Of a DNA stretch of 64,000 nucleotides, positions 1 to 50,381 are shown in pieces. The position numbers were made by a program, and so were the translations under genes. Under the pieces are notes generated by a model that had not been told where the DNA came from, did not search any database, and saw nothing but the letters and a program-made list of their open reading frames with translations. The first letter of the stretch is position 1; each line of letters begins with the position of its first letter. Origin of the DNA: Candidatus Latescibacterota bacterium (GTDB lineage: Bacteria; Latescibacterota; CBDEFO01); contig OZ252149.1 in NCBI GenBank assembly GCA_965248755.1, forward strand, positions 576,001 through 640,000, written 5' to 3'.

Positions 1-3000
1 GATGGATTGGGCAATATCTATATTGCAGATACGGGTAGTCACCGGTTACATAAGGTGGATACGTTAGGCATCATCTCCACCGTGGCAGGAGATGGCACTG
101 CTGCATTTTCCGGTGATGGCGGTCCAGCTACCAGTGCGTGGTTGAGCCTGCCTCGTGGCGTATTTGTGGATGGATCTGGCAATATCTATATTGCGGATTA
201 TAACAATCAGCGGATACGTAAGGTGGATACGTCGGGCATCATCAATACTGTGGCCGGAAATGGCACTGGTGGATTTTCCGGTGATGGAGGTCCGGCAACC
301 AGTGCGAGCTTGAATTTTCCTGTTGGCGTATTCGTGGATGGATTGGGCAATATCTATTTTGCGGATAGTAGCAATCATCGGATACGCAAGGTGGATACGT
401 CGGGCAACATCTTCACCGTGGCAGGAAGCGGGGGTACTGGTTTTGGCGCCGGTGGATTTTCCGGTGATGGAGGTCCGGCAGCAAGTGCGAGCTTGAATTT
501 TCCTAATGGCGTATTCGTGGATGGATTGGGCAATATCTATATTGCGGATAGCAATTATCGGATACGCAAGGTGGAGCCTGCGCCCGATATAGCTGTGAGT
601 CCGGGTTCTCTGAATTTCGGTCTTGTAGAAGCGGGAGTCCAGAAGTCAGATACTTTGACGGTGAGCAACGCCGGTTATGATACGCTGAGAATCTCCAGCA
701 TTACTACAAATACGTCCCCTCAACCGTTTGATGCATTCCCAGTTGGTCCATTGCCGGCAGCTGTCCCTCCGGGCGCATTAATGAAGATCGTGGTTCAGTT
801 CCGGCCTCCTTTTGTAGCTACCGTTAGCACCTTTACCGATACTGTGAAGATTACCAGCAACGACCCGGACACTGGTATTTTTAGAGTTCCTCTGATCGGA
901 CAGAGCCCTTCACCTAATATAGTTGTTAATCCGACTTCCCTGAACTTTGGTCCTGTGGACGTGGGCGCTTCCAAATCAGATAGTGTGGTGGTGACAAATA
1001 GCGGAACGGATACACTGAATATCTCCACCATCTCTACCTCTCTGCCGTTTAGTGCGCTCCCAATTGGCCCATTAGTTGTCCTTGCGGGCGGATCGTCCAC
1101 GATCGAGGTTCGCTTCGAACCCGGTAATGTGGGGGTATTTAGTGATAGTTTAACTATCAACAGCAATGACCTGGATAGTCCTGTTGTTAAAGTCCCTCTG
1201 CTTGGATTTGTCCCTCAAGCTGCTGAACCGAGCATCATCACCACCGTGGCAGGAGATGGGTTCAGTGATGTGTTTGGGAACGGAAGGTTTTCCGGTGATG
1301 GAGGTCCAGCTACCAGTGCGAGTATGTTTAGTCCTAAGGGCGTAGCTGTGGATGAATTGGGAAATCTCTATATTGCGGATGAGAGAAATCACCGGATACG
1401 TAAGGTGGATACGTCGGGCAACATCTCCACCGTGGCGGGAAGCGGAACTGCTACTTTTGGTGGATTTTCCGGTGATGGTGGTCCAGCTACCAGTGCGAGC
1501 TTGGCGTTTCCTAATGACGTATTTGTGGATGGATCTGGCAATATCTATATTGCGGATACAGTCAATAACCGGATACGTAAGGTGGATACATCTGGCATCA
1601 TCTCCACCGTGGCAGGAAATGGTATTCTTGCATTTTCCGGTGATGGTGGTCCAGCTACCAGTGCGAGCTTGTTTTTCCCTAATGACGTATTTGTGGATGG
1701 ATCTGGCAATATCTATATTGCGGATACAGAAAATAATCGGATACGTAAGGTGGATGCGTTGGGCATCATCTCCACTGTGGCAGGAAGTGGCACTTTTGGA
1801 GATCTCGGTGACGGGGGTCAAGCTACCAGTGCAACTTTGAGAGTTCCACGTGACTTATTCGTGGATGGATTAGGCAATATCTATATTGCGGATAATAGCA
1901 ATCAGCGGATACGTAAGGTGGATACGTCGGGCATCATCTCCACTGTGGCAGGAGGTGGCACTTTTGGAGTTCTCGGTGACGGGGGTCCAGCTACCAGTGC
2001 GTACTTGGGGGGTCCTGTTAGCGTATTCGTGGGTGGATTGGGCAATATCTATATTGCGACTGTGAACGATAACCGGATACGTAAGGTGGATACGTCTGGC
2101 ATCATCTCCACCGTGGCAGGAAATGGCATTGCTGCATTTTCCGGTGATGGAGGTCCAGCTACCAGTGCGAGCTTGGATCGCCCTACTGGCGTATTCGTGG
2201 ATGGATTGGCCAAAATCTATATTGCGGATTCGGTAAATAACCGGATACGTCTGGTGAGGTTTGGGCCCATTATAGCTGTTAATCCTCCTTCTGTGAACTT
2301 CGGTAATGTGAAAGTGGGAGGTGGCAAGGTAGATACTGTGGAGGTGAATAATACAGGGATTGGCACCTTGAGTATCTCTAGCTTCTCTACCTTTGCACCG
2401 TTCAGTGCAGTCTCAATTGGCCCAGTATCTGTGCCTCCGGAAGGATTGTCCGAGATCGAGGTCACATTCCAACCCGGTTCTGTGGGCGCATTTAACGATA
2501 CATTGACTATCAACAGTAACGATCCGGAAAGTCCTGTTGTCAAAGTCCCTCTGAGCGGAATAGGCTTTGTCCAGCCTCCTGTTGGTGATCTTTCCAACAC
2601 TAAGATCGCCTTTCGCTCAGACCGCGATGGCAACAATGAAATCTACGTGATGGACGCAGATGGCAGAAACCTGATCAAGCTGACCAACGACCCGGGGAGT
2701 GACGGGGGGCCTAGTTGGTCACCTGACGGAACGAAGATCGCCTTTGTGTCAGAACGCGATCTCAACAGCGAGATCTACAAGATGGACGCAAACGGGACAA
2801 ACCTGCTCAATCTGACCAACGACCCGGCCAGTGACGGGCGGCCTAGTTGGTCACCCGACGGGACAAAGATTGCCTTTAATTCAGACCGCAATGGCAACAA
2901 TCAAATCTACGTGATGGACCCTGACGGGCTAAACCAAACAAGACTGACAAACAACCCGGATAATGACAGGCATCCTAATTGGTCACCTGACGGAACGAAG

Positions 3001-5397
3001 ATCGCCTTTGTGTCAGACCGCAATGGCAACAATCAAATCTACGTGATGGGTGCTGACGGCTTGAACCAAACAAGAGTGACAACCAACTCGGCCAATGACG
3101 GGGGGCCTAGTTGGTCACCTGACGGAACTAAGATCGCCTTTGACTCAGACCGCGAAGGCAACACACAGATCTACGTGATGGACCCTGACGGGCTAAACCA
3201 AACAAGACTGACAAACAACACGGCTAATGACGGGCAGCCTAGTTGGTCACCTGACGGAACGAAGATCGCCTTTTTCTCAAACCGAGATGGTGACGAGGAG
3301 ATCTACGTGATGGACCCTGACGGGCTAAACCAAACAGAACTGACAGGCAACTCGATCCGTGACGATCAGCCTTCTTGGTCGTCGTTCCTGCCTTCTCCTG
3401 GGCCCAAGATAGCTGTAAATCCGGATTCCGTGAACTTCGGCACTGTGTCAGTAGGTGGTTCTAAGTTGGACACAGTGATGGTGAACAATGCAGGAGGTGA
3501 CACGCTTGATATAACTGGCCTTTCTCCGGCACCGCCTTCGCTGCCGTTCAGTGCGTCCTTGATAGGCCCAAACAGAATCGCTCCGGGCGGATTCACTAAA
3601 ATCGAGGTTAAGTTCCAACCCGATTCTGTGAGGGTATTTAGCGATAGTTTGACTATAATCAGCAACGACCCGGATAGTCCTGTCAAAGTTCCTCTGACTG
3701 GAGAGGGCGCACTTAATCCTGGACCCGATATATCCAATGTATTCCCTTCCAGAGATCTCGTTCCAATCGGCGCTCATGTGCGGATCTTCGCTGATGTGAC
3801 CGATGAAGACGGCGTAGCCTCGGTGACAGCCAATATCTTCGACGCGAACGATGCGGGCTTTACTCCTGCGCAGTTGACGCTCTTCAATGACGGGGAGCAT
3901 AAAGATGGGCTACCCGGAGACAGGTTGTGGGGAAGCGAGCCCTGGCCTACTCCCGCCGATCGTCCCCGTGAGTTCCTTGTGAACATCTTGGCGGCTGACA
4001 GCTTGGGCGCAGAGAGCCATGCAGACAGCGCCGCCTCGTTTGCGACAGCCGACTCCTCAATCTTTGTCACTGTGGGAGCGGGAGATGAAATCGCAGGCCC
4101 CGGCGGTCAAGCGGAAGTTTCTATCTTTGCTTCTAATCTAACAGGTCAAAACGTGCTATCAGGCGAGATAACGCTCGGTTTCGATCCAGCCCTTGTGCAA
4201 TTTGTGAGAGCATTTCCGGGACAACAACCTATCGAAGGTTTCGACTCTAACTCCCCAGAGCCCGGTAAAGCTATAGTAGTCTTTGCCTCAACGTCCCCGC
4301 TTCTTGATACTCCAGATAGTACCTTAGCAGTTGTGCTATTCCAAGTAAACCCCAATGCACCGTTAGGTTCAAGCATGCGCGTATCTGTGGAACAAGCCAA
4401 CCTGAACGAGGGATTTCCTCCTATAGTCACGTTTGATGGAACTGTCACCGTTAAACTTGTTGGAGACCTCAGCAGAAACGGTGAGGTTAAGGCTTTCGAT
4501 GTTTCACTAATGCTGATGCACCTGGTTGAAATTAAAAATGTAATAGATGAATTCTTTGGCGGTGATGTAGGACTATTCGTTGCGATCTCCGACGTGACTC
4601 GCAATGGGGGAGTAACGTCTTTTGACGCTGCTCGGGTACTCCAATTTTTGGTCGGAAAGATCCCGGGACTCCCATTCCACGGGCACGATAGTATTCCGAA
4701 AGCCGTGGATGTTGCTGCTCGTACAGTTAGCATCTCGGATCGATTTGAATTATCTGATGACACTATAAAGTTCCCTCTCTCCATAGACGATATGTCAGGA
4801 GTGCTCGGAGCGGATATATCCCTAAGCTACGACGCATCGAGACTGAAGCCAGTAGGTGTATCTCCTTCAGATATGTTGTCCTCATTTATGTTCCAAAGCA
4901 ACATAGAGGACAACGAGGTTAAGATAGCCTTTGCCTCCGCAGAAGGAGTAGAAGGCAGCGGAGACGTAGCCTACATCGAGTTTGAGATCATCCCTGGTGC
5001 GGGTGACAACCTAGGTGATGACCTGTTGAAGATCTCAGACGTCCAACTCAACGAGGGGTTGATCCCCGTAGTAATTGAGCAGACGGAACTATCGTTGGCT
5101 GTCATTCCCGAAGTCTACGCCCTCTCTCAGAACTATCCTAATCCCTTCAACCCTGAGACAGTGATACATTATGATCTCCCTGTGAGAAGCCGCGTTGACA
5201 TCTCTGTCTTCAACCTGATAGGGCAGAAGGTAGCAACGTTGGTGGCCGTAGAAATGGATGCGGGGAGTCACTCTGTGGTATGGAACGCTAAAGATAGCAA
5301 CGGTGAGAACCTTGCCAGCGGAGTTTATCTCTATCGCATGGAAGCGGGTGGATCGGAAACATTTGTTCGGACGAGGAAGCTGATACTGTTGAGATAG
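1..5397 (+). CDS. Large secreted modular protein (5' partial): NHL repeats, ASH/choice-of-anchor-D Ig domains, TolB-like PD40 repeats, choice-of-anchor-X-like motif, cohesin-dockerin-cohesin, FlgD-Ig/T9SS-like C-terminal domain
   Basis: Open frame from base 1. Repeated GNIYIADxxNxRIRKVD...FSGDGGPATSA (NHL), PSWSPDGTKIAF repeats (PD40), dockerin-like GDLSRNGEVKAFD...DVTRNGGVTSFD, and C-terminal QNYPNPFNP...ASGVYLYRM...RKLILLR. Confidence 0.9.
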   Translation, partial: DGLGNIYIADTGSHRLHKVDTLGIISTVAGDGTAAFSGDGGPATSAWLSLPRGVFVDGSGNIYIADYNNQRIRKVDTSGIINTVAGNGTGGFSGDGGPATSASLNFPVGVFVDGLGNIYFADSSNHRIRKVDTSGNIFTVAGSGGTGFGAGGFSGDGGPAASASLNFPNGVFVDGLGNIYIADSNYRIRKVEPAPDIAVSPGSLNFGLVEAGVQKSDTLTVSNAGYDTLRISSITTNTSPQPFDAFPVGPLPAAVPPGALMKIVVQFRPPFVATVSTFTDTVKITSNDPDTGIFRVPLIGQSPSPNIVVNPTSLNFGPVDVGASKSDSVVVTNSGTDTLNISTISTSLPFSALPIGPLVVLAGGSSTIEVRFEPGNVGVFSDSLTINSNDLDSPVVKVPLLGFVPQAAEPSIITTVAGDGFSDVFGNGRFSGDGGPATSASMFSPKGVAVDELGNLYIADERNHRIRKVDTSGNISTVAGSGTATFGGFSGDGGPATSASLAFPNDVFVDGSGNIYIADTVNNRIRKVDTSGIISTVAGNGILAFSGDGGPATSASLFFPNDVFVDGSGNIYIADTENNRIRKVDALGIISTVAGSGTFGDLGDGGQATSATLRVPRDLFVDGLGNIYIADNSNQRIRKVDTSGIISTVAGGGTFGVLGDGGPATSAYLGGPVSVFVGGLGNIYIATVNDNRIRKVDTSGIISTVAGNGIAAFSGDGGPATSASLDRPTGVFVDGLAKIYIADSVNNRIRLVRFGPIIAVNPPSVNFGNVKVGGGKVDTVEVNNTGIGTLSISSFSTFAPFSAVSIGPVSVPPEGLSEIEVTFQPGSVGAFNDTLTINSNDPESPVVKVPLSGIGFVQPPVGDLSNTKIAFRSDRDGNNEIYVMDADGRNLIKLTNDPGSDGGPSWSPDGTKIAFVSERDLNSEIYKMDANGTNLLNLTNDPASDGRPSWSPDGTKIAFNSDRNGNNQIYVMDPDGLNQTRLTNNPDNDRHPNWSPDGTKIAFVSDRNGNNQIYVMGADGLNQTRVTTNSANDGGPSWSPDGTKIAFDSDREGNTQIYVMDPDGLNQTRLTNNTANDGQPSWSPDGTKIAFFSNRDGDEEIYVMDPDGLNQTELTGNSIRDDQPSWSSFLPSPGPKIAVNPDSVNFGTVSVGGSKLDTVMVNNAGGDTLDITGLSPAPPSLPFSASLIGPNRIAPGGFTKIEVKFQPDSVRVFSDSLTIISNDPDSPVKVPLTGEGALNPGPDISNVFPSRDLVPIGAHVRIFADVTDEDGVASVTANIFDANDAGFTPAQLTLFNDGEHKDGLPGDRLWGSEPWPTPADRPREFLVNILAADSLGAESHADSAASFATADSSIFVTVGAGDEIAGPGGQAEVSIFASNLTGQNVLSGEITLGFDPALVQFVRAFPGQQPIEGFDSNSPEPGKAIVVFASTSPLLDTPDSTLAVVLFQVNPNAPLGSSMRVSVEQANLNEGFPPIVTFDGTVTVKLVGDLSRNGEVKAFDVSLMLMHLVEIKNVIDEFFGGDVGLFVAISDVTRNGGVTSFDAARVLQFLVGKIPGLPFHGHDSIPKAVDVAARTVSISDRFELSDDTIKFPLSIDDMSGVLGADISLSYDASRLKPVGVSPSDMLSSFMFQSNIEDNEVKIAFASAEGVEGSGDVAYIEFEIIPGAGDNLGDDLLKISDVQLNEGLIPVVIEQTELSLAVIPEVYALSQNYPNPFNPETVIHYDLPVRSRVDISVFNLIGQKVATLVAVEMDAGSHSVVWNAKDSNGENLASGVYLYRMEAGGSETFVRTRKLILLR

Positions 5398-5431
5398 GCT
5401 CCTTTCCTGCATGTCTCCAAATCTCTAAATT

Positions 5432-5460
5432 AGGCTCAGTCCATTCGGACTGGGCCTTTT
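5432..5460 (+). terminator. Rho-independent terminator
   Basis: AGGCTCAGTCC-ATTC-GGACTGGGCCT hairpin followed by a T tract, 35 bp after the stop codon. Confidence 0.8.
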
Positions 5461-5548
5461 CGTTTGTCCATAAGCTTGATTTTTGCGCTATGTATCGTTA
5501 CATTTTTGGGCGGAATACCGCTTTACTGAATAGCCCCGCCATTTTAGC

Positions 5549-5577
5549 TTGACACAATTGCGTTAATTGATTAACTT
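5549..5577 (+). promoter_or_regulatory. Sigma70-type promoter for dapA
   Basis: TTGACA-17 bp-TAACTT upstream of dapA. Confidence 0.6.
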
Positions 5578-5643
5578 GAATACTGTGAAAATTCCTCTTT
5601 AATAAATGCCCTTCAATTCTTATTAGATAAGGCAGGTGAAAAG

Positions 5644-6525
5644 ATGCTGAATCTGAGAGGATCGTTTGTCGCCCTCGTCACGCCCTTTAAAGATGGAAGG
5701 CCGAATGAAAAGAAGCTCGGGGAACAGGTCGAATTCCACATCGAAAACGGGACGGACGGCATAGTCCCCTGCGGGACAACGGGCGAATCTGCCACTATGA
5801 CTCACGAGGAGCACCACAGGGTGACGGAAGCCATAATCGAGGCTGCCAACGGCAGAATATCCATTCTCGCCGGAACGGGCTCCAACAACACGGAGGAGGC
5901 CCTGACCCTCACAAAGCACGCCAAAGCTGCCGGAGCCGACGGGGCGCTTCTGGTCAGCCCATACTACAATAAGCCCACGCAGGAGGGCATCTTTCAGCAC
6001 TACAAGAAGATCAACGACGAAATCGATTTTCCTTTAGTCCTCTACAACGTCCCCGGCAGGACGTCCAGCAACATACTCCCTGAGACCACAGCCAGGCTCT
6101 CTGTTCTTTCAAACATAGTCGGCATAAAAGAGGCCAGCGGCGATTTGAACCAGATCTCCACGGTGGTGCTAAAATCCTCGTCCGACTTTGCCGTTATCTC
6201 CGGCGACGACATGCTCACTTTGCCCATACTCTCCGTCGGAGGCAGTGGCATCATTTCAGTTGTCGCCAATATAGCTCCCAAAGAGGTTGCCGATATGGTC
6301 AGGCACTGGGAGAACGGAAAGTTCGACGAAGCCCTTAAACTCCACAAGAAACTCCTTTCACTTTCACAGGCAATGTTCTTCGAGACCAGCCCTGGCCCAG
6401 TCAAAACAGCAATGAACCTTTTGGGGATGGACGCCGGAGAACTGAGACTTCCCCTTTACAGGATGTCTGAGGATAATCTCAAAAAACTCAAAGCCGCAAT
6501 GAGAGAATTCGGCTTTTCCATCTGA
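5644..6525 (+). CDS. dapA: 4-hydroxy-tetrahydrodipicolinate synthase
   Basis: ALVTPF, GTTGES, PYYNKPTQEG, LYNVPGRT and GIKEASG (Schiff-base Lys) motifs. Confidence 0.97.
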   Translation: MLNLRGSFVALVTPFKDGRPNEKKLGEQVEFHIENGTDGIVPCGTTGESATMTHEEHHRVTEAIIEAANGRISILAGTGSNNTEEALTLTKHAKAAGADGALLVSPYYNKPTQEGIFQHYKKINDEIDFPLVLYNVPGRTSSNILPETTARLSVLSNIVGIKEASGDLNQISTVVLKSSSDFAVISGDDMLTLPILSVGGSGIISVVANIAPKEVADMVRHWENGKFDEALKLHKKLLSLSQAMFFETSPGPVKTAMNLLGMDAGELRLPLYRMSEDNLKKLKAAMREFGFSI

Positions 6526-6553
6526 TAACCTCAGGGAATCAGATTCAAGACAC

Positions 6554-6596
6554 AAAAGCGTCAGGTTCTTGATGAGACCCGGCGCTTTTGGCTTTT
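6554..6596 (+). terminator. Probable terminator hairpin after dapA
   Basis: AAAAGCGTCAGGTTC...GACCCGGCGCTTTTG inverted repeat followed by T-rich sequence. Confidence 0.55.
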
Positions 6597-6756
6597 AAGA
6601 TAAGAAGGAGAGATGGAAGTTGGCCACCAACCCCCCTTTAATTCCCCCCTTGTTAAGGGGGGATATAGGGGCGTGGCTTGCTACCTCCCCATCAAAGCGG
6701 CCACGCCGCCTAATTTTAATAGCTTTGTGCCTTAATAGCTGAAAGGAGAAGTCCCG

Positions 6757-7560
6757 ATGACAAGAGTGGTCGTCTGTGGGGTAGCCGGAAGGATGGGTGT
6801 GAGGCTGTCCAATCTCATCCTCGAAAGCGACGACCTGGAACTTGTGGGCGGGACGGAAACTCCAGGTCACAGCGCTATAGGCGCCGACATCGGAGAGACC
6901 GTCGGCGCCGGTAATTTAGGGATAAGTGTCTCTGACAATTTGGAGGAAATTACATCCCGGGCCGACGTAGTCACCAACTTCACCGCGCCCCGTGCCACAG
7001 TCGAAGCCGCCGAAATCTGCGGGAGAACTGGTGTGGCCATGGTGGTCGGCACCACGGGACTGGACGAAAGCCAACTTTCGCAGTTTAAGAGGGCCGTATC
7101 CAACATCCCATGCGCCTTTGCTCCCAACTTCAGCGTCGGAGTCAATCTCCTTTTCAAGCTCGTAAAAGAGGCATCGCAGATACTTGGTGACGCCTACGAT
7201 GTTGAGATAATAGAGACGCATCACAACCTCAAGAAGGACGCCCCCAGCGGCACTGCCGCCAAATTAGCCCAAATAGTCGCAGAAGCATTAAAAAGAGACC
7301 TTTCCGACTCTACTGTCTACGGTAGAGAAGGCATGATAGGTGAGCGCACCCAACAAGAGATAGGCATCCACGCTGTAAGGGCAGGAGACATAGTCGGCGA
7401 ACACACTGTCCTCTTCGGAGGCACAGGTGAGAGCATCCAGCTTCTGCATAGAGCCCAGAGCAGAGACTCCTTCGCCACAGGAGCTTTAAGGGCTGTGAGA
7501 TTCGTGGCAAGAGCAGAACCCGGACTCTACGATATGACAGATGTGTTAGGGATAAAATAA
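6757..7560 (+). CDS. dapB: 4-hydroxy-tetrahydrodipicolinate reductase
   Basis: GVAGRMG, VVGTTG, APNFSVG, ETHHNLKKDAPSGTA and RAGDIVGEH motifs. Confidence 0.97.
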   Translation: MTRVVVCGVAGRMGVRLSNLILESDDLELVGGTETPGHSAIGADIGETVGAGNLGISVSDNLEEITSRADVVTNFTAPRATVEAAEICGRTGVAMVVGTTGLDESQLSQFKRAVSNIPCAFAPNFSVGVNLLFKLVKEASQILGDAYDVEIIETHHNLKKDAPSGTAAKLAQIVAEALKRDLSDSTVYGREGMIGERTQQEIGIHAVRAGDIVGEHTVLFGGTGESIQLLHRAQSRDSFATGALRAVRFVARAEPGLYDMTDVLGIK

Positions 7561-11188: not shown

Positions 11189-11204
11189 AGCGATGCGATC
11201 TTAA

Positions 11205-12830
11205 CCCGCATTCCCCCTATTAAACCAGAACAATGCTTTGATAATATGTCATAACATGTTATTATGTGATAAATAACATTAGAAAATATATGGCAAGTAC
11301 TGGTCGCCCGGAGGGTGAAAGAATGAAAGTAGGTTTTGATGGAGGAATAAAGTTTGAATTTCATGGTGCAAAGGTGACATCAAACGGTGGGCTTCTTGCG
11401 TATCGTGACCTTGATTACGCACTGGGATTATTTGATTCGGTATCAGCGGTTTTTACCGATAAACGCACAGGCCGTAATATCCAACATGATATATCTACTC
11501 TCCTGGGTCAATCGATATACAGCCGTCTTGCAGGATATGAAGATGTAAATGAGGCCGAGCTATTATCCGTTGATCCCCTCATGCGAGCGATCACCGGAAA
11601 AAAGGCCAAAGGCAAGCAAGCCGCCAGCTCCAACACGATAGGACGTTTTGAAACTGAGACACTGACTCAGCACGACAATCTCAGAAACTTGTCAGATATC
11701 AATGGCAAGTGGGTTCAAGAAGCGATGAGTAAAACACATCATCAACGAATTATTCTGGACATGGATAGTTCGGAGAGTCCGGTACATGGCGAGCAGGAAG
11801 GATCAGCTTACAACGGTCATTTCGGGTGTACCTGTTTTCATCCAGTGTTCTGCTTCAATCAGTTCGGGGATTGTGAAGGAGTCCTGCTTCGCTCTGGTAA
11901 TGTCCACAGTGCTGATCTCCCCTATTGAATCTATCGGGGACGAATCGTCAAGAGATACGAGAGCAAAAAGAATAGGAAATACTTTCGAGGTGATGCTGCA
12001 TTCGCAAAGCCTGAGATTTATGATTATCTGGAGGAAAACGGCTATTTGTATCCATTCGGCTTCCCGCAAATGAGATACTCTATGAAAAGATTCGATTCCT
12101 GCTGACTCGGCCAGTTGGACGACCGCCGAGGAAACCGATTGTGTTGTTATATGAATTTCAATATAAAGCGGCCAGTTGGGATCAATCGAGGCGAGTGGTC
12201 GCCAAGGTTGAATGGCACCAAGGGGAGTTATTCCCAAGAGTGGGATTTATCGTGACCAGCATGAGCGCCAAGCCAGAAGGCGTGGTACACTTCTACAATG
12301 GCCGTGGGACAGCTGAGCAGTGGATTAAGGAGGGTAAGTATGCTCTGAACAGGACCCGACTCTCATGCAAGCGTTTCGTCTCCAATCAGGTGAGGCTCTG
12401 GCTGTTTGTTCTGGCTTACAACTTGGGCTACTTCCTGCGACGCTTTGTTCTTCCGAAGAAAATCAAACACTGGTCACTACGCAGCCTCCTCGTGAAATTT
12501 ATCAAAATCGGAGCGAAGGTTGTCAGACACAGCGGATATATTACGTTTCAGATGGCTGAGGTTGGGATAGACAAAAGGTTATTTGCCGAAATATTATCCC
12601 GCATTGAACGATTGCGATGTTATCTGTTTAAACTGCCACATTTTTTTGTGAGTCGATGGAGCGGTGTCTCTAATTAGAGGATTTACATACACAGAAAGTG
12701 ATAATTCAGAGGAAAATGCTATTTTGATTGAAAAAAGTACTTGTTGAAAAATATAAAAGTGATAATATTCATTCACAAACAAGATTGTATCGAAATAAAA
12801 TCCCTCATGAAAGTGATATGGGAATGTCGA
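11205..12830 (+). mobile_element. IS1380-family insertion sequence, degenerate copy 1
   Basis: IRL CCCGCATTCCCCCTATT and IRR ...GATATGGGAATGTCGA; highly similar to the intact copy at 42632-44257. Confidence 0.9.
11323..12677 (+). pseudogene. IS1380 transposase, frameshifted
   Basis: Three fragments matching the intact copy (VTSNGGLL, ILDMDSS, RG.AEQWIKEGK) with indels near 11915-11940 and 12050. Confidence 0.92.
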
Positions 12831-40887: not shown

Positions 40888-40950
40888 GGTGGGTCAGACA
40901 TTCCTGTCTGACATGGATACTTTGAGAACAGACAAGAATGTCCGTTCTAC
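40888..40950. repeat. REP-like inverted pair (family A)
   Basis: GGTGGGTCAGACATTCCTGTCTGAC ... GAACAGACAAGAATGTCCGTTCTAC. Confidence 0.75.
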
Positions 40951-41183: not shown

Positions 41184-42631
41184 ATGCAACGTATAACCCT
41201 TTCTATTCTGATACTCCTGGTCGCTTTGAATACGACTGCCTCCGCACAAGTCCTGTTCGCAGCCAGGACCAACTATCTTGCTGGAAATGGTCCCACATCA
41301 GTTTCCAGTGCGGATTTCGATGGAGATGGAGATAATGACCTGGCTGTGGCTAATGAGTTCAGCAATAGTGTGTCAGTGTTGTTTAATAATGGAGATGGGA
41401 CATTTGCAGACTCTACCAGGGTGGACTATAGTCTTGGGTTTGATCCCACATCAGTTTTCAGTGCGGACATAGATAGTGATGGAGATAACGACTTAGCTGT
41501 GGCTAATGAGGGCAGCGATAATGTGTCAGTGCTGCTGAATAATGGAGATGGGACATTTGCACCCAGGGTGGACTACCCCGCAGGGGATGGTTCTCGCTCA
41601 GCGTTCAGTGCGGATTTCGATGGAGATGGAGACAATGACCTGGCTGTGGCTAATTTTAACAGCGATAATGTGTCAGTGTTATTGAATCTGTCTACCATGC
41701 CAGCTCCTCCTCCTGTAGACACAGCCTCAGTCAGCCTCCCGAACGTATCTACCTTGGTCGGCGATACAGTTTCAGTAGCTGTTGCTGTCCAGGAGGACGT
41801 GACAGGGCTTGGAATCTTCTCAGCCCAGATGAATATCAGTTATGATTCAGATCTAATAAAGGCAATAAATGTAGCGTTGGAAGGAACACTGACCCAGGGA
41901 TGGGTGATAGATGACACAGTTGTAACAGGCATCGGAACATCTATAGACACTGTCAAGATCGCAATAGCGACTCCGGGACCTGACACATTATCAGGGTCGG
42001 GAGATATAGTCCGTATCAAGTTTGCAGTCTCCGATTCGGCAGCCATAGGTGATTCCATACCATTAGTCTTTGAGGAATTCTTCTTCAACGAAGGCGATCC
42101 AGCGGCAAATGCACAGGACGGGTCTGTGCAAATTCTGGAATTAGGAGACATCAGCGGCAACGGAAGGGTGACGGCGTTCGATGCTTCTTTGGTGCTTAGA
42201 TCCACAGTAGGTCTCTTTGTAATCTCTGACACCCTGATAGCAGATGTCAGTGGAGACGGCACCATAAGCGCCTTTGATGCCTCCTTGATGCTCAGGTTCG
42301 TTGTCGGTAAAATAACTATATTTCCTGCCGAGACAGGAGGCACTCCTAAAATTGTGCTTGGCGAAAGGATTGTCAGTTTAGGTGATATAAAGACTTTGCC
42401 TGATGGCCGCTTTGTACTCCCTATTCTCATAGATGAAATGGACGGTGTCCTCTCAGGTCAATTTGAACTCTCCTTCAATCCGATCAAGCTAAAACCATTA
42501 GATGCTACGACATCCGATCTGACTTCTGATTATCTTTTCGTCCATAATGCTCAAGACGGCAGATTAAAGCTATCGTTTGCCGCAGCAGAATCGGTTGAAG
42601 GCAGCGGCAGGATCGCAGAGATTATATTTGA
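41184..42631 (+). pseudogene. 5' part of a secreted FG-GAP/cohesin/dockerin/cohesin/FlgD protein interrupted by the IS1380 unit
   Basis: GAGGAGG RBS; signal peptide; ADFDGDGDNDLAVAN x3; dockerin GDISGNGRVTAFD/ADVSGDGTISAFD; breaks at EIIF|. Confidence 0.9.
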
Positions 42632-42749
42632 CCCCCATTCGCCATATTAGACCCGAAAAATGGTTGTCAAAGTCGCCAGAACATGTTATATTACAATAAA
42701 TAAGACTCATAAATGGCGGATAAATATTGATCATCCAGAGGGTGAAAGA

Positions 42750-44057
42750 ATGAAAGTAGGTTTTGATGGAGGAATAAAGCTTGAATTTCATGGTGCAAAG
42801 GTGACATCAAACGGTGGACTTCTTGCGTATCGTGACCTTGATTACGCACTGGGATTATTTGATTCGGTATCAGCGGTTTTTACCGATAAACGCACAGGCC
42901 GTAATATCCAACATGATATATCTACTCTCCTGCGTCAATCGATATACAGCCGTCTTGCAGGATATGAAGATGTAAATGACGCCGAGCGATTATCCGTTGA
43001 TCCCGTCATGCGAGCGATTACCGGAAAGAAGGACAAAGGCAGGCAAGCTGCCAGCTCCAACACGATAGGACGTTTTGAAACTGATATACTGACTCAGCAT
43101 GACAATCTCAGAAACTTGTCAGATATCAATGGCAAGTGGGTTCAAAAAGCGATGAGTAAAACACAGCATCAACGAATCATTCTGGACATGGACAGTTCGG
43201 AGAGTCCGGTACATGGCCAGCAGGAAGGATCAGCTTACAACGGTCATTTCGGATGTACCTGTTTTCATCCAGTGTTCTGCTTCAATCAGTTCGGGGATTG
43301 TGAAGGAGTCCTACTTCGCTCTGGTAATGTTCACAGTGCTGATCGTTGGAAGGAAGTTCTGGAACCGATCGTCAAGAGATACGAGAGCAAGAAGAATAGG
43401 AAATACTTTCGAGGCGATGCTGCATTCGCAAAGCCTGAGATTTATGATTATCTGGAGGGAAACGGCTATTTGTATGCCATTCGGCTTCCCGCAAATGAGA
43501 TACTCTATGAAAAGATACGATACCTGCTGACTCGGCCAGTTGGACGACCGCCGAGGAAACCGATTGTATCGTTATATGAATTTCAATATAAAGCGGCCAG
43601 TTGGGATCAATCGAGGCGAGTGGTCGCCAAGGTTGAATGGCACCAAGGGGAGTTATTCCCAAGAGTGGGATTTATCGTGACCAACATGAGCGCCAAGCCA
43701 GAAGGCGTGGTACACTTCTACAATGGCCGTGGCAGAGCTGAGCAGTGGATTAAGGAGGGCAAGTATGCTCTGAACTGGACCCGACTCTCATGCAAGCGTT
43801 TCGTCTCCAATCAGGTGAGGCTCTGGCTGTTTGTTCTGGCTTACAACTTGGGCAACTTCCTGCGACGTTTTGTTCTTCCGAAGAAAATCAAACACTGGTC
43901 ACTACGCAGCCTCCTCGTGAAATTTATCAAAATCGGAGCGAAGATTGTCAGACACAGCGGATATATTACGTTTCAAATGGCTGAGGTTGGGATAGACAAG
44001 AGGTTATTTGCCGAAATATTATCCCGGATTGAACGATTGCGATGTTATTCTGTTTAA
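42750..44057 (+). CDS. IS1380-family transposase
   Basis: EFHGAKVTSNGGLL, AGYEDVNDA, LDMDSS, FRGDAAF and YNGRGRAEQWIKEGK. Confidence 0.95.
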   Translation: MKVGFDGGIKLEFHGAKVTSNGGLLAYRDLDYALGLFDSVSAVFTDKRTGRNIQHDISTLLRQSIYSRLAGYEDVNDAERLSVDPVMRAITGKKDKGRQAASSNTIGRFETDILTQHDNLRNLSDINGKWVQKAMSKTQHQRIILDMDSSESPVHGQQEGSAYNGHFGCTCFHPVFCFNQFGDCEGVLLRSGNVHSADRWKEVLEPIVKRYESKKNRKYFRGDAAFAKPEIYDYLEGNGYLYAIRLPANEILYEKIRYLLTRPVGRPPRKPIVSLYEFQYKAASWDQSRRVVAKVEWHQGELFPRVGFIVTNMSAKPEGVVHFYNGRGRAEQWIKEGKYALNWTRLSCKRFVSNQVRLWLFVLAYNLGNFLRRFVLPKKIKHWSLRSLLVKFIKIGAKIVRHSGYITFQMAEVGIDKRLFAEILSRIERLRCYSV

Positions 44058-44169
44058 ACTGCCACATTTTTTTGTGAGTCGATGGAGAGGTGTCTCTAAT
44101 TGGAGGATTTAAACACAAAGAAAGTGATAATTCAGAGGAAAATACTATTTTAATTGAAAAAAGTACTTG

Positions 44170-44197
44170 TTGAAAAATGTAAAAGTGGTAATATTAA
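44170..44197 (+). promoter_or_regulatory. Possible outward-facing IS promoter
   Basis: TTGAAA-16 bp-TATTAA in the AT-rich IS right end, pointing at the passenger genes. Confidence 0.4.
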
Positions 44198-44261
44198 TTC
44201 AGAAACAAGAATGTATCGAAATATAATCCCTCATGAATGTGATATGGGGAATGTCGGACTA

Positions 44262-44738
44262 ATGGTTGAGGTAAAGATAGCCACTCTTCTTATCGATCAG
44301 ACAGGACACATTGTTTTGTTGAAGGAGTTGAGCGGGGATCGAGTCCTTCCTATATGGATAGGTGAGGCGGAGGCAAGGGCTATAGCTGGGGAGGTCCAGG
44401 ATCAGAAGTACAAGCGTCCCTTATCTCACGACCTGCTGGAGATGCTCCTTGACACTTTAGAGGCAAAGGTAATTAAGGTGGAAGTGTCCAATCTTGTAGA
44501 CAGTACCTACTACGCTCAACTCTATCTTCAAAGGGAAAATAGGATTGTAAAGGTGGATGCCCGTCCAAGCGATTCCATAATTATGGCTTTAAAAACTCAC
44601 GCTCCAATATTTGTTGCCGGGGAGCTTCTAGAACGAGTTGAGGGTATCCAGATAGAAGATATAGAGGAAAGTGGAGAAAGTCTGAAGGACAGAGTACAGA
44701 GGATTAATCCTGAAGATTTTGGGAATTTTAAGCTGTGA
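44262..44738 (+). CDS. Bifunctional nuclease / DUF151 family protein
   Basis: VLPIWIGEAEA, RPLSHDL and VDARPSDSI; ATG 4 bp after IRR. Confidence 0.9.
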   Translation: MVEVKIATLLIDQTGHIVLLKELSGDRVLPIWIGEAEARAIAGEVQDQKYKRPLSHDLLEMLLDTLEAKVIKVEVSNLVDSTYYAQLYLQRENRIVKVDARPSDSIIMALKTHAPIFVAGELLERVEGIQIEDIEESGESLKDRVQRINPEDFGNFKL

Positions 44739-46597
44739 TGCCAGTCAGAGAATATAGAATATTTCTGCTATTTGCAGTGGTTCTCTATTTTGCCACAGAG
44801 GCTTTCGGAGAATCGGAAGATAAAGAGACGCGCCTTTTCGATCAAGAGGCTGAGGACGTCTTCCAAAGAGGAATAGAAAGGTATGTGAAGGGACACTTTC
44901 AAAGAGCGCGGCTCGAATTTCAGGAGGTATTAGAGAAATTCCCCATCAATCAGAAGTCATCCGCAGCAAAGTTGATGTTAGCCAAGACGGTCTACAAGCT
45001 GAGCGACTACGAACTGGCGATCTCTGTCGCCGAGGAATTGAAAAGTGAGTTCCCGTCGAGCAGGTACCTCTGGGACGCCGATTATGCGGCAGGCGATTCT
45101 TATTTTCGTCAGGGAAGGTTCGTCGAGGCTGTGTTCAAATACGCGCTTGTCCTGGTGGGGACACAGGAGACAGACTTAAAGTTGAAAGCAGCTGAGCGTC
45201 TGTCGGTCGTGGCATTGACAAATCTGTCCAAATCCGAAATCGAGGACATAAAAGAGAAGTTCGATCCAGGAGTTGTGGAGGAAGGACTTCTTTTAGGCGA
45301 AGCAAGATGGATTTTCAGGTGGGGCTATTCTCATCTGGCGGCTGAGAAGGTGGACAGCTACATTAGGAACTTCCCAGACGGTCTATTCTTGAATGAGGCG
45401 ATAGCTTTAAGGGAGGAGATAGAGGTGGGAGTGCAAGTAAGCTATCGTACAAGCTGGTCATCGGATAAGATAGGTGTCATCTGTCCACTTTCCGGCGAGG
45501 GAAGAATCTACGGCGAGGATCTAAGAGACGGGGCAAAGTTAGCCTTGGAACACTCCTCGCTTTCCCGTAGGGGGGCAATCGAATTAATAGTTGAAAATTC
45601 AAGAAGCGATCCGATAACTGCGGTGAAGGTGGTCCAGAAGTTGATAGAAAAGGACAGAGTCCTTGCTATAGTCGGACCTCTTTACAGTTCTACGACTATA
45701 GGGGCAGCAGCGGTGGCAAACTCCGAATCGGTTCCACTGATCGCTCCTACCGCTTCAGAGGGCCCGATAGCCTCAATTGGACCTTACGTGTTTCAGATCA
45801 ACTCAACTCCAGAGGTTCAAGGAAAGAGGATGGCCGAATACGCTGTGGGGACACTGAACCTGGAGACGTTTGCCCTAATCGCCTCTATGGATATGTACGG
45901 ACAGGAGATGTCCAGAAGTTTCAGATCGAGGGTGGAGGAATTGGGGGGAAGAGTCCTGCAGGAGGAGAGATATTTTCCGGGCACAAAGGATTTCAAAGAG
46001 CAATTACAGAGGATAAGGAACGCTGGGCTCTTGCTCCAGGATATACTATTGGCAGCGGATACCTCAAGGGTGGACACTACCGCTTTTGAGGAGGACCTCC
46101 CCGAGGAAGAGGAATTACAGCCTGTGGGGACTATTGACGGCGTTCTGATAGCGGGCGCTTCTGATGATGTGATATTGATAGCCCCTCAGATAGCTTTGAA
46201 GAGGATCGAGACCCAACTTTTGGGAGGAAGCCAGTGGAATTCTCAGAACATAATCAGAATGAGCGGGAGCTACGTGGAGGGAGCCCTATTCGTATCCGGG
46301 TATTTTGAAGATTTAGGATCACCGGCGATCAATCGGTTTATAAGTTCGTTCAGACGTAAATTTGGAAGGTCGCCCTCAACGGCAGCCGCTTTCGGCTACG
46401 ACGCTATGTCGCTGGTGCTGAGAGAACTAAGTATAGGTCACAGGACCAGGGAAAATTTGAAGAATACTCTTCAAAAGGTAAGGGACTTTGAGGGGGTTTC
46501 AGGGAGGATCTCATTCGGAAGCCAGAGCCATCAGAACGAGAACGTCTATCTTTTGAAGATAGATAAAAAGAGGATAGTTTCGCTCGGAAAACTCTGA
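44735..46597 (+). CDS. TPR plus periplasmic-binding (LpoA/LivJ-like) protein
   Basis: Signal peptide and TPR-like helices; IGVICPLSG, IVGPLYS, FGYDA and FEGVSGRISF. Confidence 0.8.
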   Translation: MMPVREYRIFLLFAVVLYFATEAFGESEDKETRLFDQEAEDVFQRGIERYVKGHFQRARLEFQEVLEKFPINQKSSAAKLMLAKTVYKLSDYELAISVAEELKSEFPSSRYLWDADYAAGDSYFRQGRFVEAVFKYALVLVGTQETDLKLKAAERLSVVALTNLSKSEIEDIKEKFDPGVVEEGLLLGEARWIFRWGYSHLAAEKVDSYIRNFPDGLFLNEAIALREEIEVGVQVSYRTSWSSDKIGVICPLSGEGRIYGEDLRDGAKLALEHSSLSRRGAIELIVENSRSDPITAVKVVQKLIEKDRVLAIVGPLYSSTTIGAAAVANSESVPLIAPTASEGPIASIGPYVFQINSTPEVQGKRMAEYAVGTLNLETFALIASMDMYGQEMSRSFRSRVEELGGRVLQEERYFPGTKDFKEQLQRIRNAGLLLQDILLAADTSRVDTTAFEEDLPEEEELQPVGTIDGVLIAGASDDVILIAPQIALKRIETQLLGGSQWNSQNIIRMSGSYVEGALFVSGYFEDLGSPAINRFISSFRRKFGRSPSTAAAFGYDAMSLVLRELSIGHRTRENLKNTLQKVRDFEGVSGRISFGSQSHQNENVYLLKIDKKRIVSLGKL

Positions 46598-46653
46598 TTG
46601 ATATTGCTTACTTTTGGTCATTGCAAGAGAGATGAAATCCCCCGACGCAATTT

Positions 46654-46680
46654 CAACGGCGATTTTGAAAATCGTCGTTG
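46654..46680. repeat. Intergenic hairpin
   Basis: CAACGGCGATTTT-G-AAAATCGTCGTTG. Confidence 0.6.
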
Positions 46681-46729
46681 TGTATGGCGGAAGGTATCAA
46701 GATCTATTTGTAGGAGAAGGAATTAAGCC

Positions 46730-47491
46730 GTGAGACTTCAAGATAAAGTTGCGATTGTTACTGGGGGAGCGTCGGGGATAGGTCGGGGGACAGCCCTCTT
46801 GATGGCAGGGGAGGGAGCAAAGGTCATAGTTGCAGACGTGGATGAGGAGGGCGCAAGAGAGACGGTTTCTATGATTGAATCGAAAGAGGGAAAGGGCGTC
46901 TCCTGTTACGCCGATGTGGGGACTGCAAAGGGAGTTGAAGAGATGATAGGAGTGGCTGTGGATAGTTACGGGAAGATAGACGTTTTGCACAACAACGCCT
47001 ACTGGCATTCCGGAGGGACGGCGATGACTATCTCTGAGGAGGATTGGGATCATACGCTGGACGTCTGTCTCAAGGCTGTATACATGGGATGTAAGCTTGC
47101 AATCCCCCAGATGCTGAAGACGGGTGGAGGAGCTGTCGTTAACACGGCATCTATTCACAGTCTTGTCTCCTTTCATAAGTATGCTGCGTACGATGCCGCA
47201 AAAGCCGGTGTCATAGGACTTACACGCTCTTTGGCACTGGATTTTGGACCCCAGATCCGGGCGAACGCAGTGCTCCCGGGGGCTATTCTGACTGCTGCCT
47301 GGAGTGGGATTGATCAAGAAGAGATGGACCACTGGGCCCGGATGACCCCAATGAAGCGTATGGGGCAGCCTGAGGATATAGCTAAGGCTGTGATATTCTT
47401 AGCTTCTGATGACGCCTCGTTTATTACGGGGACAAGTCTGGTAGTTGACGGTGGATGGACTATTGTGGGTCATCCCAGGACAGATGAATAA
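46730..47491 (+). CDS. Short-chain dehydrogenase/reductase
   Basis: TGGASGIG, NNA, YDAAK and ITGTSLVVDGG. Confidence 0.95.
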   Translation: MRLQDKVAIVTGGASGIGRGTALLMAGEGAKVIVADVDEEGARETVSMIESKEGKGVSCYADVGTAKGVEEMIGVAVDSYGKIDVLHNNAYWHSGGTAMTISEEDWDHTLDVCLKAVYMGCKLAIPQMLKTGGGAVVNTASIHSLVSFHKYAAYDAAKAGVIGLTRSLALDFGPQIRANAVLPGAILTAAWSGIDQEEMDHWARMTPMKRMGQPEDIAKAVIFLASDDASFITGTSLVVDGGWTIVGHPRTDE

Positions 47492-47551
47492 CGCGTTTTA
47501 GATCAAGTGACCGAACTGGATAAAGGGCCGGATAGTTCAGAGTTTCTGATT

Positions 47552-47586
47552 GAGGGGTTTCTTAACTGAACCCCTCTCCTTTTTAT
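47552..47586 (+). terminator. Terminator after SDR
   Basis: GAGGGGTT...AACCCCTC followed by TCCTTTTTAT. Confidence 0.6.
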
Positions 47587-47595
47587 CGCTTTACA

Positions 47596-47624
47596 TTGAC
47601 AGCCAACCTAAACTATGCTAATTT
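47596..47624 (+). promoter_or_regulatory. Sigma70-type promoter
   Basis: TTGACA-17 bp-TAATTT with TG extension. Confidence 0.55.
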
Positions 47625-47783
47625 TAGGATATGTGAAGTGCCTCCCAAAAGAGTAGACAACACCTCTGGGGAAGAGTCGGGATGCTGTCTAGCCACGATT
47701 GAACCCCTGATCCCCGATTGAGTCTATCGGGGATTCATATTGTGGGTTGGGGGATAGTATTTACTTATTTAGGGACATTAAGA

Positions 47784-48872
47784 ATGCAGATCAAGATAGA
47801 TAGACATAAACTGATTATGGGCATCGGGAGCAATGCGGTGGACGTAATCTACAGGGTGCGCAGGATCGCGGGCAAAGATGAAAAGACGTATATCCTCCCT
47901 AACAATGAAGGGAATATGGTAAAGGAGGTCGCAGGGGGAGTTGTACTGAATCATCTTGCATGGGCCAGGCTCTTGGGCGTCCGTACGGGTCTCTTTGGAT
48001 TTCAGGGGGACGATAGATTCGGAAAGTTCATAAGGGGTACTATGGACGTTCATGGGATCGAAAGGAGTTACGTCAAGGTTAAGGAGGGAAAATCGTCCAC
48101 TTTTGCGATCATAAACGTGGATACCCATGCGGAAAGGGCCATATACATGGCGTCGGCTCTGACGGGGACCACGACATCTGAGGACATAAAAAGGGAGTTC
48201 TCGGAGTGCATTTCGAACGCCGGGATGGTGACAACTGAGATCTCACAGCTCCCGTTAGATGCTGTTGTAGCTGTGCTGAGTATAGCCAAGGAAAGTGATG
48301 TTCCGACGGTTTTAGATGTGGACGTTCCCCCGAGTTTCGCTGTGGATTTGGCTGGCTTGGGAAGTAGAAAGGAGTTTGAAAAAGCTCTTTCTCTGGCTGA
48401 TCTTATCAAGCCTGCCAAGGCCGTTGCGGACCAGATAGTAGGGGGCGATACATCTGAGGATAAGGCGAGGGACATATTCCAGAAGTACAGCCCCAGGTTA
48501 GTAGCTGTTACGGACGGCGCAGAAGGGAGCGTTCTCTATGATGGGGGCTCTATCGTGAGGGTAAAGTCCAACAGTGTAGTTGCGAGAGATACGACAGGAG
48601 CAGGAGACGCTTTCCTGGGGGGCGTGATTGCCGGGATATATTATGGCTTGTCTTTAGAGGATATAGGAAAGCTTGCAAATGCGTGCGGGGCTGCGTGCTG
48701 TACTGTGGCTGGCGCGTTTCCCGTTATGGACAGTAGTCTGGAGTATGTAGGATCTCTCTACGATAGAGGGAGAGTAGATGCCCTTGAAGGTATATTGATA
48801 GGCCAGAGTGAAGGAGCGAACGATTGCACTTCCGTAGGCATAGAAACTGTGAGGAACCAGATAGATCATTAG
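47784..48872 (+). CDS. PfkB-family carbohydrate kinase (originally fused to an SIS domain)
   Basis: GDDRFG and DTTGAGDAFLGG. Confidence 0.88.
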   Translation: MQIKIDRHKLIMGIGSNAVDVIYRVRRIAGKDEKTYILPNNEGNMVKEVAGGVVLNHLAWARLLGVRTGLFGFQGDDRFGKFIRGTMDVHGIERSYVKVKEGKSSTFAIINVDTHAERAIYMASALTGTTTSEDIKREFSECISNAGMVTTEISQLPLDAVVAVLSIAKESDVPTVLDVDVPPSFAVDLAGLGSRKEFEKALSLADLIKPAKAVADQIVGGDTSEDKARDIFQKYSPRLVAVTDGAEGSVLYDGGSIVRVKSNSVVARDTTGAGDAFLGGVIAGIYYGLSLEDIGKLANACGAACCTVAGAFPVMDSSLEYVGSLYDRGRVDALEGILIGQSEGANDCTSVGIETVRNQIDH

Positions 48873-49437
48873 GGGCTCTCTATTTAGGGATGGGGGGGAT
48901 TATAATCGCGAAGCTATGGGGTTGATAAGAAACGTTCAGAGTAAGGGAGGCCGTATTTACGTGACGGTTTTGTGTAAACCGAGACTTTTAGCCGAGAAGA
49001 TCGCCCCTGCGTTGCAGAGTGTGGGAACTCCCGCCTATTTTCTCGACCCCGTTGACGTAAATCACGGTGAGAGCGATTAACTCAACGAAGGGGATGTGGT
49101 TATAGCTATCTTTCAGGGTGATGCCAAAAGGGAACTGTTGGATGGCATCAGGACGATCAAGCATAAATGAGCTTATGATATAGGGATTACGTTGTAGGGA
49201 TTACTTAAGGAATACAAATCTGAGCTTGCGAAGTTGAGCAATGTCCTTCTGCCTGTCCCAGCGCAGAAAGAGGCGATATCTTTTGAGTTGACACCTACTC
49301 CAAGCACAACGTGCCAACTCGTCCTTGAAGATTGCCTTGCAATGTCTTTAAATGACGCCAAGGAATTCACAAAGCAGGATTTCCACAAGTGCTATCCAGG
49401 TGGAAGTCTGGGAAAGATTCTGGACGACAGTGCGTGA
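48873..49437 (+). pseudogene. Decayed KpsF/GutQ-like SIS sugar-phosphate isomerase domain
   Basis: GRIYVT...AEKIA..LQSVGTPAYFL...HG...GDVVIAI...PTPSTT...FHKCYPGGSLG with several stops and frameshifts. Confidence 0.8.
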
Positions 49438-49476
49438 TTATTGTGAATTAAATTCGATAAACTTTTGGGAGGAAAA

Positions 49477-49991
49477 TTGGCTAAGTTAATCGCTTTTGAT
49501 CTGGACGATACTGCTTTAGCAGTGGACAGGGGATTCTCCGAAGATGGAATAAAAGTTTTAGAGGAAGCTCTCCAAAGAGGTATTCTAATAGCTTCTGTGA
49601 GCGGGAGAAATGTGGACAGGAGCAGCAGTCCTTTCAACGATAAGCTTCAATTGTTTGAGAGAATATATATTGTTTCCTACAACGGGGCTGTCGTCCTGGA
49701 ACCTGTGGATAGGAACGCAAGGGAGTTGATTTATGTGCAGAGGATGACGGAAGATAAGATGCTCGATCTTACAGATTATGTCCGGGACAATGGCTATGAT
49801 CTTGTCTATTATCAGTTTGAGATGGACGGAAACGGCCGGATGGATGAAAAACTTATAGTCCTTCGTCCTTCCCCATCTACGAGAATACTCGAGACCCAGA
49901 CAGGGGCAACGTACGAGTTTGATGAGGGTCTTACAGATAGGATAATGAATAAAAAACTAGGGCCTCCTCCCAAAATGATGGTGCTTCCGGG
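49477..49991 (+). pseudogene. Cof-like HAD hydrolase, 3' truncated at the transposition-unit end
   Basis: AFDLDDT, SGR and YNGA motifs; lacks the C-terminal GD...D motif. Confidence 0.82.
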
Positions 49992-50381
49992 TTTGAGCCT
50001 GTAGGTGAGACTATTAGTGGAATTGATATAGTCTCCGCTCAATTTAACGAAGGTCTCTTCAGTGTGGTTATATCCCAATTTGAAGGCATTTCCAAAGCCC
50101 CGGACAGCTTTTCATTGCATCAGAACTATCCGAATCCGTTCAACCCTGAGACTGTTATCCATTACGATCTTCCTATTCATAGCCACGTTGATATATCTGT
50201 CTATAATATAGCGGGGCAAAAGATTGCAACATTGGTAGACAAGGAGATGGACTTAGGCAGTCACTCCATAATCTGGGATGGAAAAAATAATAAAGGAGAA
50301 GGTCTTGCCAGCGGAGTGTATTTCTATCGGATGGAGACGGACAGATTTGTGCAGACAAGAAAGCTGATCTTGATGCGATAA
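49992..50381 (+). pseudogene. 3' part (end of cohesin plus FlgD-Ig domain) of the gene starting at 41184
   Basis: FEPVGETISGIDIVSAQFNEG...QNYPNPFNPET...RKLILMR, colinear with the C-terminus of ORF 1-5397. Confidence 0.9.

Follow-up and report, generated by a model that had tools for sequence, protein, structure and literature searches.

Surrogate right ends and one-ended gene capture by an IS1380-family insertion sequence in a Candidatus Latescibacterota chromosome

Insertion sequences (IS) of the IS1380 family are known as the vehicles that first took up resistance genes from chromosomes, and passages of PMC12116815 give 4–5 bp as the length of their target duplications. Parts of a 2022 review (PMC9330008) describe IS1247 and ISPme1 of Paracoccus, which form transposable modules (TMos), and ISKpn23 as single IS that move variable DNA from their 3' side and make 5-bp duplications. 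ISEcp1 (ISEc9), known mostly through resistance genes, is described in parts of PMC12116815, PMC6061673 and PMC9601100 as combining a fixed left inverted repeat (IRL) with weak alternatives to the right inverted repeat (IRR) that share 3–12 bases with it, an AT-rich 5-bp duplication and segmental duplication within one genome. There are precedents for non-resistance cargo (passages of PMC5737581 and PMC9330008) and for multi-copy duplication (passages of PMC5737581 and PMC9601100), and the comparison literature for such systems also includes PMC4133298 and PMC13423793, of which parts were available. The 2022 review states, in the part concerned, that the IS1380 pathway is unknown and that donor fate has not been studied for ISEcp1. 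Here we analyse an IS1380-family element in a stretch of 64,000 nucleotides (hereafter the window) from a Candidatus Latescibacterota bacterium (assembly GCA_965248755.1), which covers positions 576,001–640,000 of a single 4.54-Mb contig, OZ252149.1. The element is a new IS1247-like member of the family that makes ordinary transposable modules, or transposition units, and it shares with the systems above the single IS, the fixed IRL, the variable 3'-side DNA and the 5-bp duplications.

The jumping unit in the window measures 7,360 bp and consists of a 1,626-bp IS followed by 5,734 bp of cargo, with TTTGA on both sides (Table 1). Like TMos and ISEcp1-type units, it comprises one IS with DNA from its right end, a duplication around the whole unit and a distal end that resembles IRR weakly, and as a single event it is ordinary for the family. 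We regard capture through surrogate ends, in which a site in the flanking DNA is used in place of IRR, as practically certain. The initial annotation of the window, made from the letters alone, had proposed one-ended transposition of the ISEcp1 or IS1247 type, and our analysis supports it: the two TTTGA copies lie exactly where it had placed them, immediately before IRL and at the point where a HAD gene is cut off, and the weak likeness it saw between the surrogate end and the inverted repeat is borne out. In silico deletion of 42632–49996 restores, as it had also stated, a single open frame of 610 aa from 41184 to 50381, and the two halves of the split gene align in order to residues 1377–1660 and 1674–1796 of a paralog at 7–5397.

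The donor of the cargo lies at the contig origin, where a copy of the IS at genome positions 7677–6052 has its own adjacent ACTAA duplication and is followed by this same 5,734-bp stretch. The HAD gene is full length there (293 aa), and the window copy has the first 176 aa in common with it. The contig ends overlap by 7.2 kb untrimmed (1–7206 and 4533530–4540735, with 6 gap openings), right at this donor; an apparent third cargo copy at the contig end was rejected, since the contig is circular and the copy is this overlap. In the start copy of the overlap, PfkB and HAD are disrupted by indel errors. A genome of the same genus (G001), ~95% identical in these regions, has neither insertion: its target site is empty with one TTTGA, its donor site is empty with one ACTAA, and its ortholog of the split gene continues in frame across the junction. 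The empty allele and the donor with a complete HAD gene, which the initial annotation had named as checks, were both found, as was the continuous ortholog, whose absence it had said would refute its reading. From the donor's ACTAA duplication, its full HAD gene and the two empty sites we infer the order of the two insertions, in which the IS first inserted with the likely ribosome-binding site of the DUF151 gene on one side and its start codon on the other, and then moved with the operon region into the surface-protein gene. Judged by sequence, the window cargo duplicates an operon of the genome itself and is not foreign DNA. Over 40 anchors the two genomes are ~95% identical and heavily rearranged, and both are IS-rich; a full copy of the IS1380 element was not seen in G001, only partial relatives, the best of them 86% identical over 1.3 kb.

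Read support comes from contigs of four runs of one sample, probably the source sample and hence not independent. The right junction of the window unit is bridged by one read-derived contig, and at the left junction two contigs enter the IS by just 28–29 bases, below the 31-base rule. The empty allele, a joint skipping 42632–49996, is not among the 3 joints listed from these contigs, which drop rare variants. Cargo read depth relative to the flank was higher in two runs and about equal in two, and was not used as a copy-number test.

Genome-wide, there are 47 full copies of the element at ≥99.9% identity, of which 17 have an adjacent target duplication (15 of 5 bp, 1 of 6 bp and 1 of 4 bp) and 30 do not. 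A search of the other copies for distal duplications, again a check that the initial annotation had named, showed that 26 of these 30 are units closed by a distal duplication, so that one-ended capture, at 26 of 47 copies, is how the element mainly moves in this genome. Capture is right-side only. Cargo always lies on the IRR side (37,458 bp in total), and right flanks are common to 8 groups covering 34 copies, left flanks to 1 pair, which sits inside a repeated element. As a chance control, the distal 5-mer of one unit equals the left 5-mer of another in 6 of 598 cross-pairs (1%). The comparison with G001 took in ~1.5 Mb of ~4.6 Mb, and for 16 of the 30 duplication-less copies the left flank reached the junction; 14 of these resume at the distal duplication, 13 of them as had been predicted in advance, and the other two are one ambiguous case and one deletion. 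In the G001 searches, the left flank of copy 1274927 was not found and copy 3782900 gave paralogs only. Cargo and donor differ by 0–1 mismatches in all 16 pairs compared. A single 186-bp end is common to 8 units, and at least four units grew by taking up further DNA where an earlier unit had inserted (186 to 274, 186 to 1,177, 612 to 966 and 612 to 2,632 bp). Target sites are AT-rich, and 34 of 41 have T at position 2. Other cargo includes a methyltransferase with a pyrroloquinoline quinone (PQQ) dehydrogenase, a two-component pair, queA, a nucleoside phosphorylase and an integrase; one IS burst duplicated ~37 kb of host DNA, whole genes included. The genome is a natural catalogue of gene capture, with 26 non-resistance events, most of their donors, the targets and an outgroup, and it yields a rate (a surrogate end in 26 of 43 resolved insertions) and a range of cargo length (58–5,734 bp), together with an end signature that can be tested and a prediction of structure. 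There is also a practical warning, namely that an IS1380 copy lacking an adjacent duplication usually turns out to be part of a larger unit.

Some individual units show further features. The 979-bp cargo of copy 3782900 (genome 3780296–3781274) is 92% identical to the genome's own locus and 95% to that of G001, the native loci being 96% identical to each other, and on this comparison its probable source is a third, related strain. For the 612-bp cargo of copy 3849774, too, this genome offers no exact donor. At 2701891–2717687, two IS3-type copies, 8 kb apart and in inverted orientation, each carry a unit at one and the same base, with 186 bp of cargo in one and 4,662 bp in the other, which could be either a hot spot or cargo exchange by recombination. 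Another IS1380 copy (3750308–3751933), whose own duplication is 4 bp long, lies within the cargo of unit 3746991.

The sequence signature of the surrogate ends lies within the outer 7 bases. Among 19 distinct surrogate ends, which match IRR at 3–8 of 14 bases, A is present at position 6 and A or T at position 7 in every case (T7 in 16), while position 1 varies (C in 10). The mean number of matches to IRR is 3.6 of 7 over positions 1–7 and 2.1 of 7 over positions 8–14, against an expectation of 1.75, and in a leave-one-out analysis the used sites fell within the top 0.9% of positions (median of 18). On these alignments the signature, A6 and A/T7, looks necessary, not sufficient. It recurs out of sample. 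In an Acidobacteriota genome (G062) with a 75% identical transposase, both ends were found for 24 of 26 copies, and a search of 1.5 kb of flank each gave 3 adjacent and 3 distal duplications; A6-T7 is present in 3 of 3 duplication-closed ends, two pairs having been left out, one that diverges in paralogous repeats and one that agrees with the motif only after a one-base shift. In a Dehalococcoidia genome (G061; 65% identical transposase) it is present in 1 of 1 such end. The idea that surrogate ends are target-like sites was rejected, as the donor bases beyond 17 located ends are patternless whereas targets are AT-rich.

Set beside TMos, this chromosome differs in holding 26 natural events and most of their donors in one closed sequence, with serial capture and an end signature that can be counted; in size the element is close to IS1247 (1,626 bp against the 1,672 bp given in part of PMC3281130). 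The IRL of ISEcp1 likewise reads A6-T7-T8 (a passage of PMC6061673), and its outward promoter has an 18-base spacer (a passage of PMC9330008), as in the candidate promoter here, which lies 30 bp inside IRR and is one of 7 such sites found where shuffled sequences lead one to expect 3.1. A passage of PMC12116815 calls the terminal G of ISEcp1 crucial, whereas here position 1 varies and position 6 is constant, and the cargo here is ordinary chromosomal DNA instead of resistance genes. Four chromosomal IS1380 copies with adjacent non-resistance genes and a variable end have been described in Sphingobium herbicidovorans MH (PMC5737581); they differ in having one cargo and a plasmid donor, and the passage concerned gives no end rule or census. 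A genome-wide census or an A6/T7 rule for IS1380 was not found in the literature searched, a weak negative, since primary papers may contain end alignments. The value of the present case lies in the 26-event census, in the minimal end signature, which two further phyla confirm, and in a testable prediction of pathway.

The features of the IS1380 family are all present, namely a DDE transposase, short inverted repeats around one open reading frame (ORF) and a 4–5 bp duplication, and the transposase is ~55% identical to those of IS1247 and ISKpn23. Sequence search against solved structures gave no useful match for it. An AlphaFold2 model (pLDDT 92) has Tn5 transposase as its best match (PDB 1MM8 and 1MUH; Foldseek E 9e-10, TM 0.52; Z 22.5, root-mean-square deviation 4.8, 345 aligned), with Z 14.7 for piggyBac and 8.4 for the copy-out enzyme ISCth4. 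A YREK motif runs from residue 332 and is present in 58 of 65 aligned rows that cover it. Tn5/IS50, of the IS4 family, is the best structural match over most of the model length and has YREK in common with our enzyme, but differs in sequence (12–14% identity) and in duplication length (~7–13 bp for the IS4 family, according to part of PMC2266710, versus 5 here). The likeness to Tn5, as modeled, is a mechanistic lead and does not make the element a member of the IS4 family, though it may still work like one. As for where the transposase begins, homologs start with ATG where the element has ATT (42726), and a promoter-like site (42664–42692) lies downstream of the first ATG; the real start may therefore be this ATT or the ATG at 42750. 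M31 was rejected as a conserved start because homologs begin 8 codons earlier.

The Tn5-like fold and the conserved YREK favour cut-and-paste over copy-out, and Tn5-like cut-and-paste with repair of the donor is, going by the model, the probable route. The transposase would bind IRL tightly, probably in cis, and pair it either with IRR or with any site farther downstream that satisfies the tip contacts only. The whole stretch would then be excised through a hairpin intermediate from one replicated copy of the chromosome and inserted at an AT-rich 5-bp target, and the donor would be restored by repair from the sister chromosome, giving a net duplication. A completed unit then acts as a larger element, with one 186-bp end in 8 copies, and can gain new cargo beyond its old end. 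We offer as ideas for the frequent bypass of IRR the cis binding at IRL and occupancy of the candidate outward promoter. In Tn5 transposase the catalytic domain contacts the outer bases of the end and the N-terminal domain the inner bases, and a similar division here would explain why only the tip is conserved. In Tn5 the YREK residues Y and R act in hairpin resolution, as stated in part of PMC2566895. Direct intramolecular transposition of the cointegrate type does not fit, since both duplication copies are kept around each daughter and donor and daughter have the same orientation in 9 of 18 pairs. A broader reading, to which we give slightly less than an even chance, is that IS1380 transposases need almost no sequence at the second end beyond A6 and A/T7 in a C/G-rich tip, so that capture would be their normal mode instead of an occasional mistake, and the burst a genome-wide segmental-duplication machine that builds mosaic cargo stepwise through Tn5-like excision and donor repair. 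If true, this reading would provide what is missing, an end rule and a pathway, for the family responsible for mobilising CTX-M and CMY genes.

Several observations weigh against this account of capture, signature and pathway. Four of the 30 duplication-less copies are not explained as units, among them one with a ~505-bp deletion adjoining IRR and one with a motif-fitting end and a replaced left flank that has no matching left duplication. Two single-nucleotide polymorphisms (SNPs) within the IS conflict with the donor–daughter genealogy, namely position 121 (window 42752), G>C in 10 of 47 copies, and position 854 (window 43485), C>T in 5 of 47; the window copy itself has G at position 121 and its donor C. 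These conflicts hint at polishing of repeats or at gene conversion. None of the contigs from the four runs spans the whole window unit, and none links its left flank to the cargo. As regards the signature, one end was re-read as having a 6-bp duplication after failing the motif as a 5-bp one (before that, A6 stood at 17 of 18, P ~1e-9), up to 303 sites that fit equally well or better were passed over, and of two published ISEcp1 surrogate ends, hand-read from the outside in from passages of the sources, one fits A6/W7 (PMC6061673) and one does not (PMC12116815). On the pathway, a shared fold shows no chemistry, a passage of the review PMC9330008 reports hybridisation evidence for a replicative route of ISPme1, and every identified donor is still in place, the primary ones with their own adjacent duplication, which copying predicts directly and which cut-and-paste can meet only with an extra repair step.

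The retained donors and the review passage speak for the same capture by copying, either copy-out/paste-in or another replicative path, in which one end would be nicked and attack near IRR or the surrogate end, and a circle of IS plus flank would be copied out while the donor is never broken. The strict asymmetry between a fixed IRL and a variable right end also resembles the asymmetric first step of copy-out, as found in IS3 and IS256. We nevertheless consider copying rather unlikely, given that the transposase model is far nearer to Tn5 than to ISCth4 and that YREK is conserved. An IRR-to-IRL back-joint is likewise not among the 3 joints listed from the contigs, a weak point as these drop rare forms.

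An origin of the units other than single-ended capture, whether as composite transposons that lost their second IS, by recombination between IS copies or through assembler mis-joins over a 47-copy repeat, is highly improbable in our view. The IS is longer than any contig that crosses it, the internal SNPs disagree with the genealogy, the untrimmed terminal overlap falls right at the donor and some copies are clearly rearranged, all of which such an origin could accommodate. However, mis-joins or recombination would not put a 5-bp duplication exactly where cargo leaves the donor, the G001 sites are empty at those very offsets (14 of 16), and A6 is constant in the 19 ends. Composite transposons in particular were rejected because the distal junctions carry no second IS end. 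An IS3-type element of the same genome provides a control, in that all 8 of its flank-sharing copies do end at the end of a second element (an IS3 end in 7 cases and an IS1380 unit in the remaining 1), unlike the IS1380 units. This element (49 full copies; 1280495–1284343) has one end that starts with CA instead of TG; it was considered as a second one-ended system and rejected, as it forms composite transposons. Rolling-circle capture of the IS91 or ISCR kind, which parts of PMC9330008 describe as making no target duplication and using a tyrosine, non-DDE enzyme, was rejected in view of the duplications and the DDE enzyme found here.

Table 1. Features of the unit in the window, its cargo and the gene it splits (window coordinates)
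Feature	Position	Strand	Remarks
5' part of split surface-protein gene (FG-GAP repeats, cohesin, dockerin)	41184..42631	+	Pfam; now stops inside the IS at 42650
Left target-site duplication TTTGA	42627..42631	+	Single copy in G001
IS1380-family element, 1,626 bp	42632..44257	+	47 full copies in genome, ≥99.9% identity
IRL CCCCCATTCGCCAT	42632..42645	+	Left end in all 47 copies
Transposase ORF, 465 aa from first ATG	42660..44057	+	NF033539, 385.5 bits (cut-off 180); PF13701, 428.5 bits
Candidate outward promoter TTCAGA-18-TATAAT, through IRR into cargo	44198..44227	+	Consensus match only
True IRR CCGACATTCCCCAT (reverse complement), bypassed in window event	44244..44257	-	11/14 identical to IRL
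ACTAA, relic of the donor insertion's target duplication; overlaps DUF151 start codon	44258..44262	+	
Captured cargo, 5,734 bp	44258..49991	+	Copy of donor flank, genome 6051–317; longest cargo in genome
DUF151 / bifunctional nuclease domain gene, intact, 158 aa	44262..44738	+	PF02577
TPR/YfiO and periplasmic-binding-protein gene, intact, 620 aa; LpoA-like architecture	44735..46597	+	Pfam/profile matches
SDR oxidoreductase gene, intact, 253 aa	46730..47491	+	Profile matches
PfkB-family kinase gene, 362 aa from ATG 47784, stop at 48872	47718..48872	+	
SIS-domain pseudogene	48952..49341	+	Stops in donor, copy and G001
Cof-type HAD gene, cut after 176 of 293 aa	49465..49991	+	
Surrogate right end CCCGGAAGCACCAT	49978..49991	-	8/14 identical to IRR; A6, A7
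Right target-site duplication TTTGA	49992..49996	+	Single copy in G001
3' part of split gene (FlgD_ig / secretion C-terminal sorting domain)	49997..50381	+	Pfam; colinear with paralog

Of the cargo genes, those for DUF151, SDR and the partial HAD stand as the initial annotation had them; its joined PfkB-SIS gene does not, as PfkB has its own stop and the SIS domain is a separate, older pseudogene, whose stops are common to donor, copy and G001 and which was therefore broken before capture. Its LpoA-like protein holds for the architecture; the matches are to TPR/YfiO and periplasmic-binding families, and no LpoA-specific family is among the profile matches listed for this protein. At the G001 locus (C7:821127–822647) a different IS, with a 466-aa ORF, sits exactly at the PfkB stop codon. 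The gene split by the unit belongs to a family of secreted proteins that end in cohesin-dockerin-cohesin and a sorting domain, represented in the window at 7–5397 and 41184–50381 and also found genome-wide, with 11 tblastn matches of the module in the genome.

Elsewhere in the window, short sequences at 40890–40950 and 47690–47750, the latter inside the cargo, are repeated many times in this genome and in G001. A decayed relative of the IS1380 element, 93% identical and with a broken transposase, lies at ~11200–12830 without an adjacent duplication.

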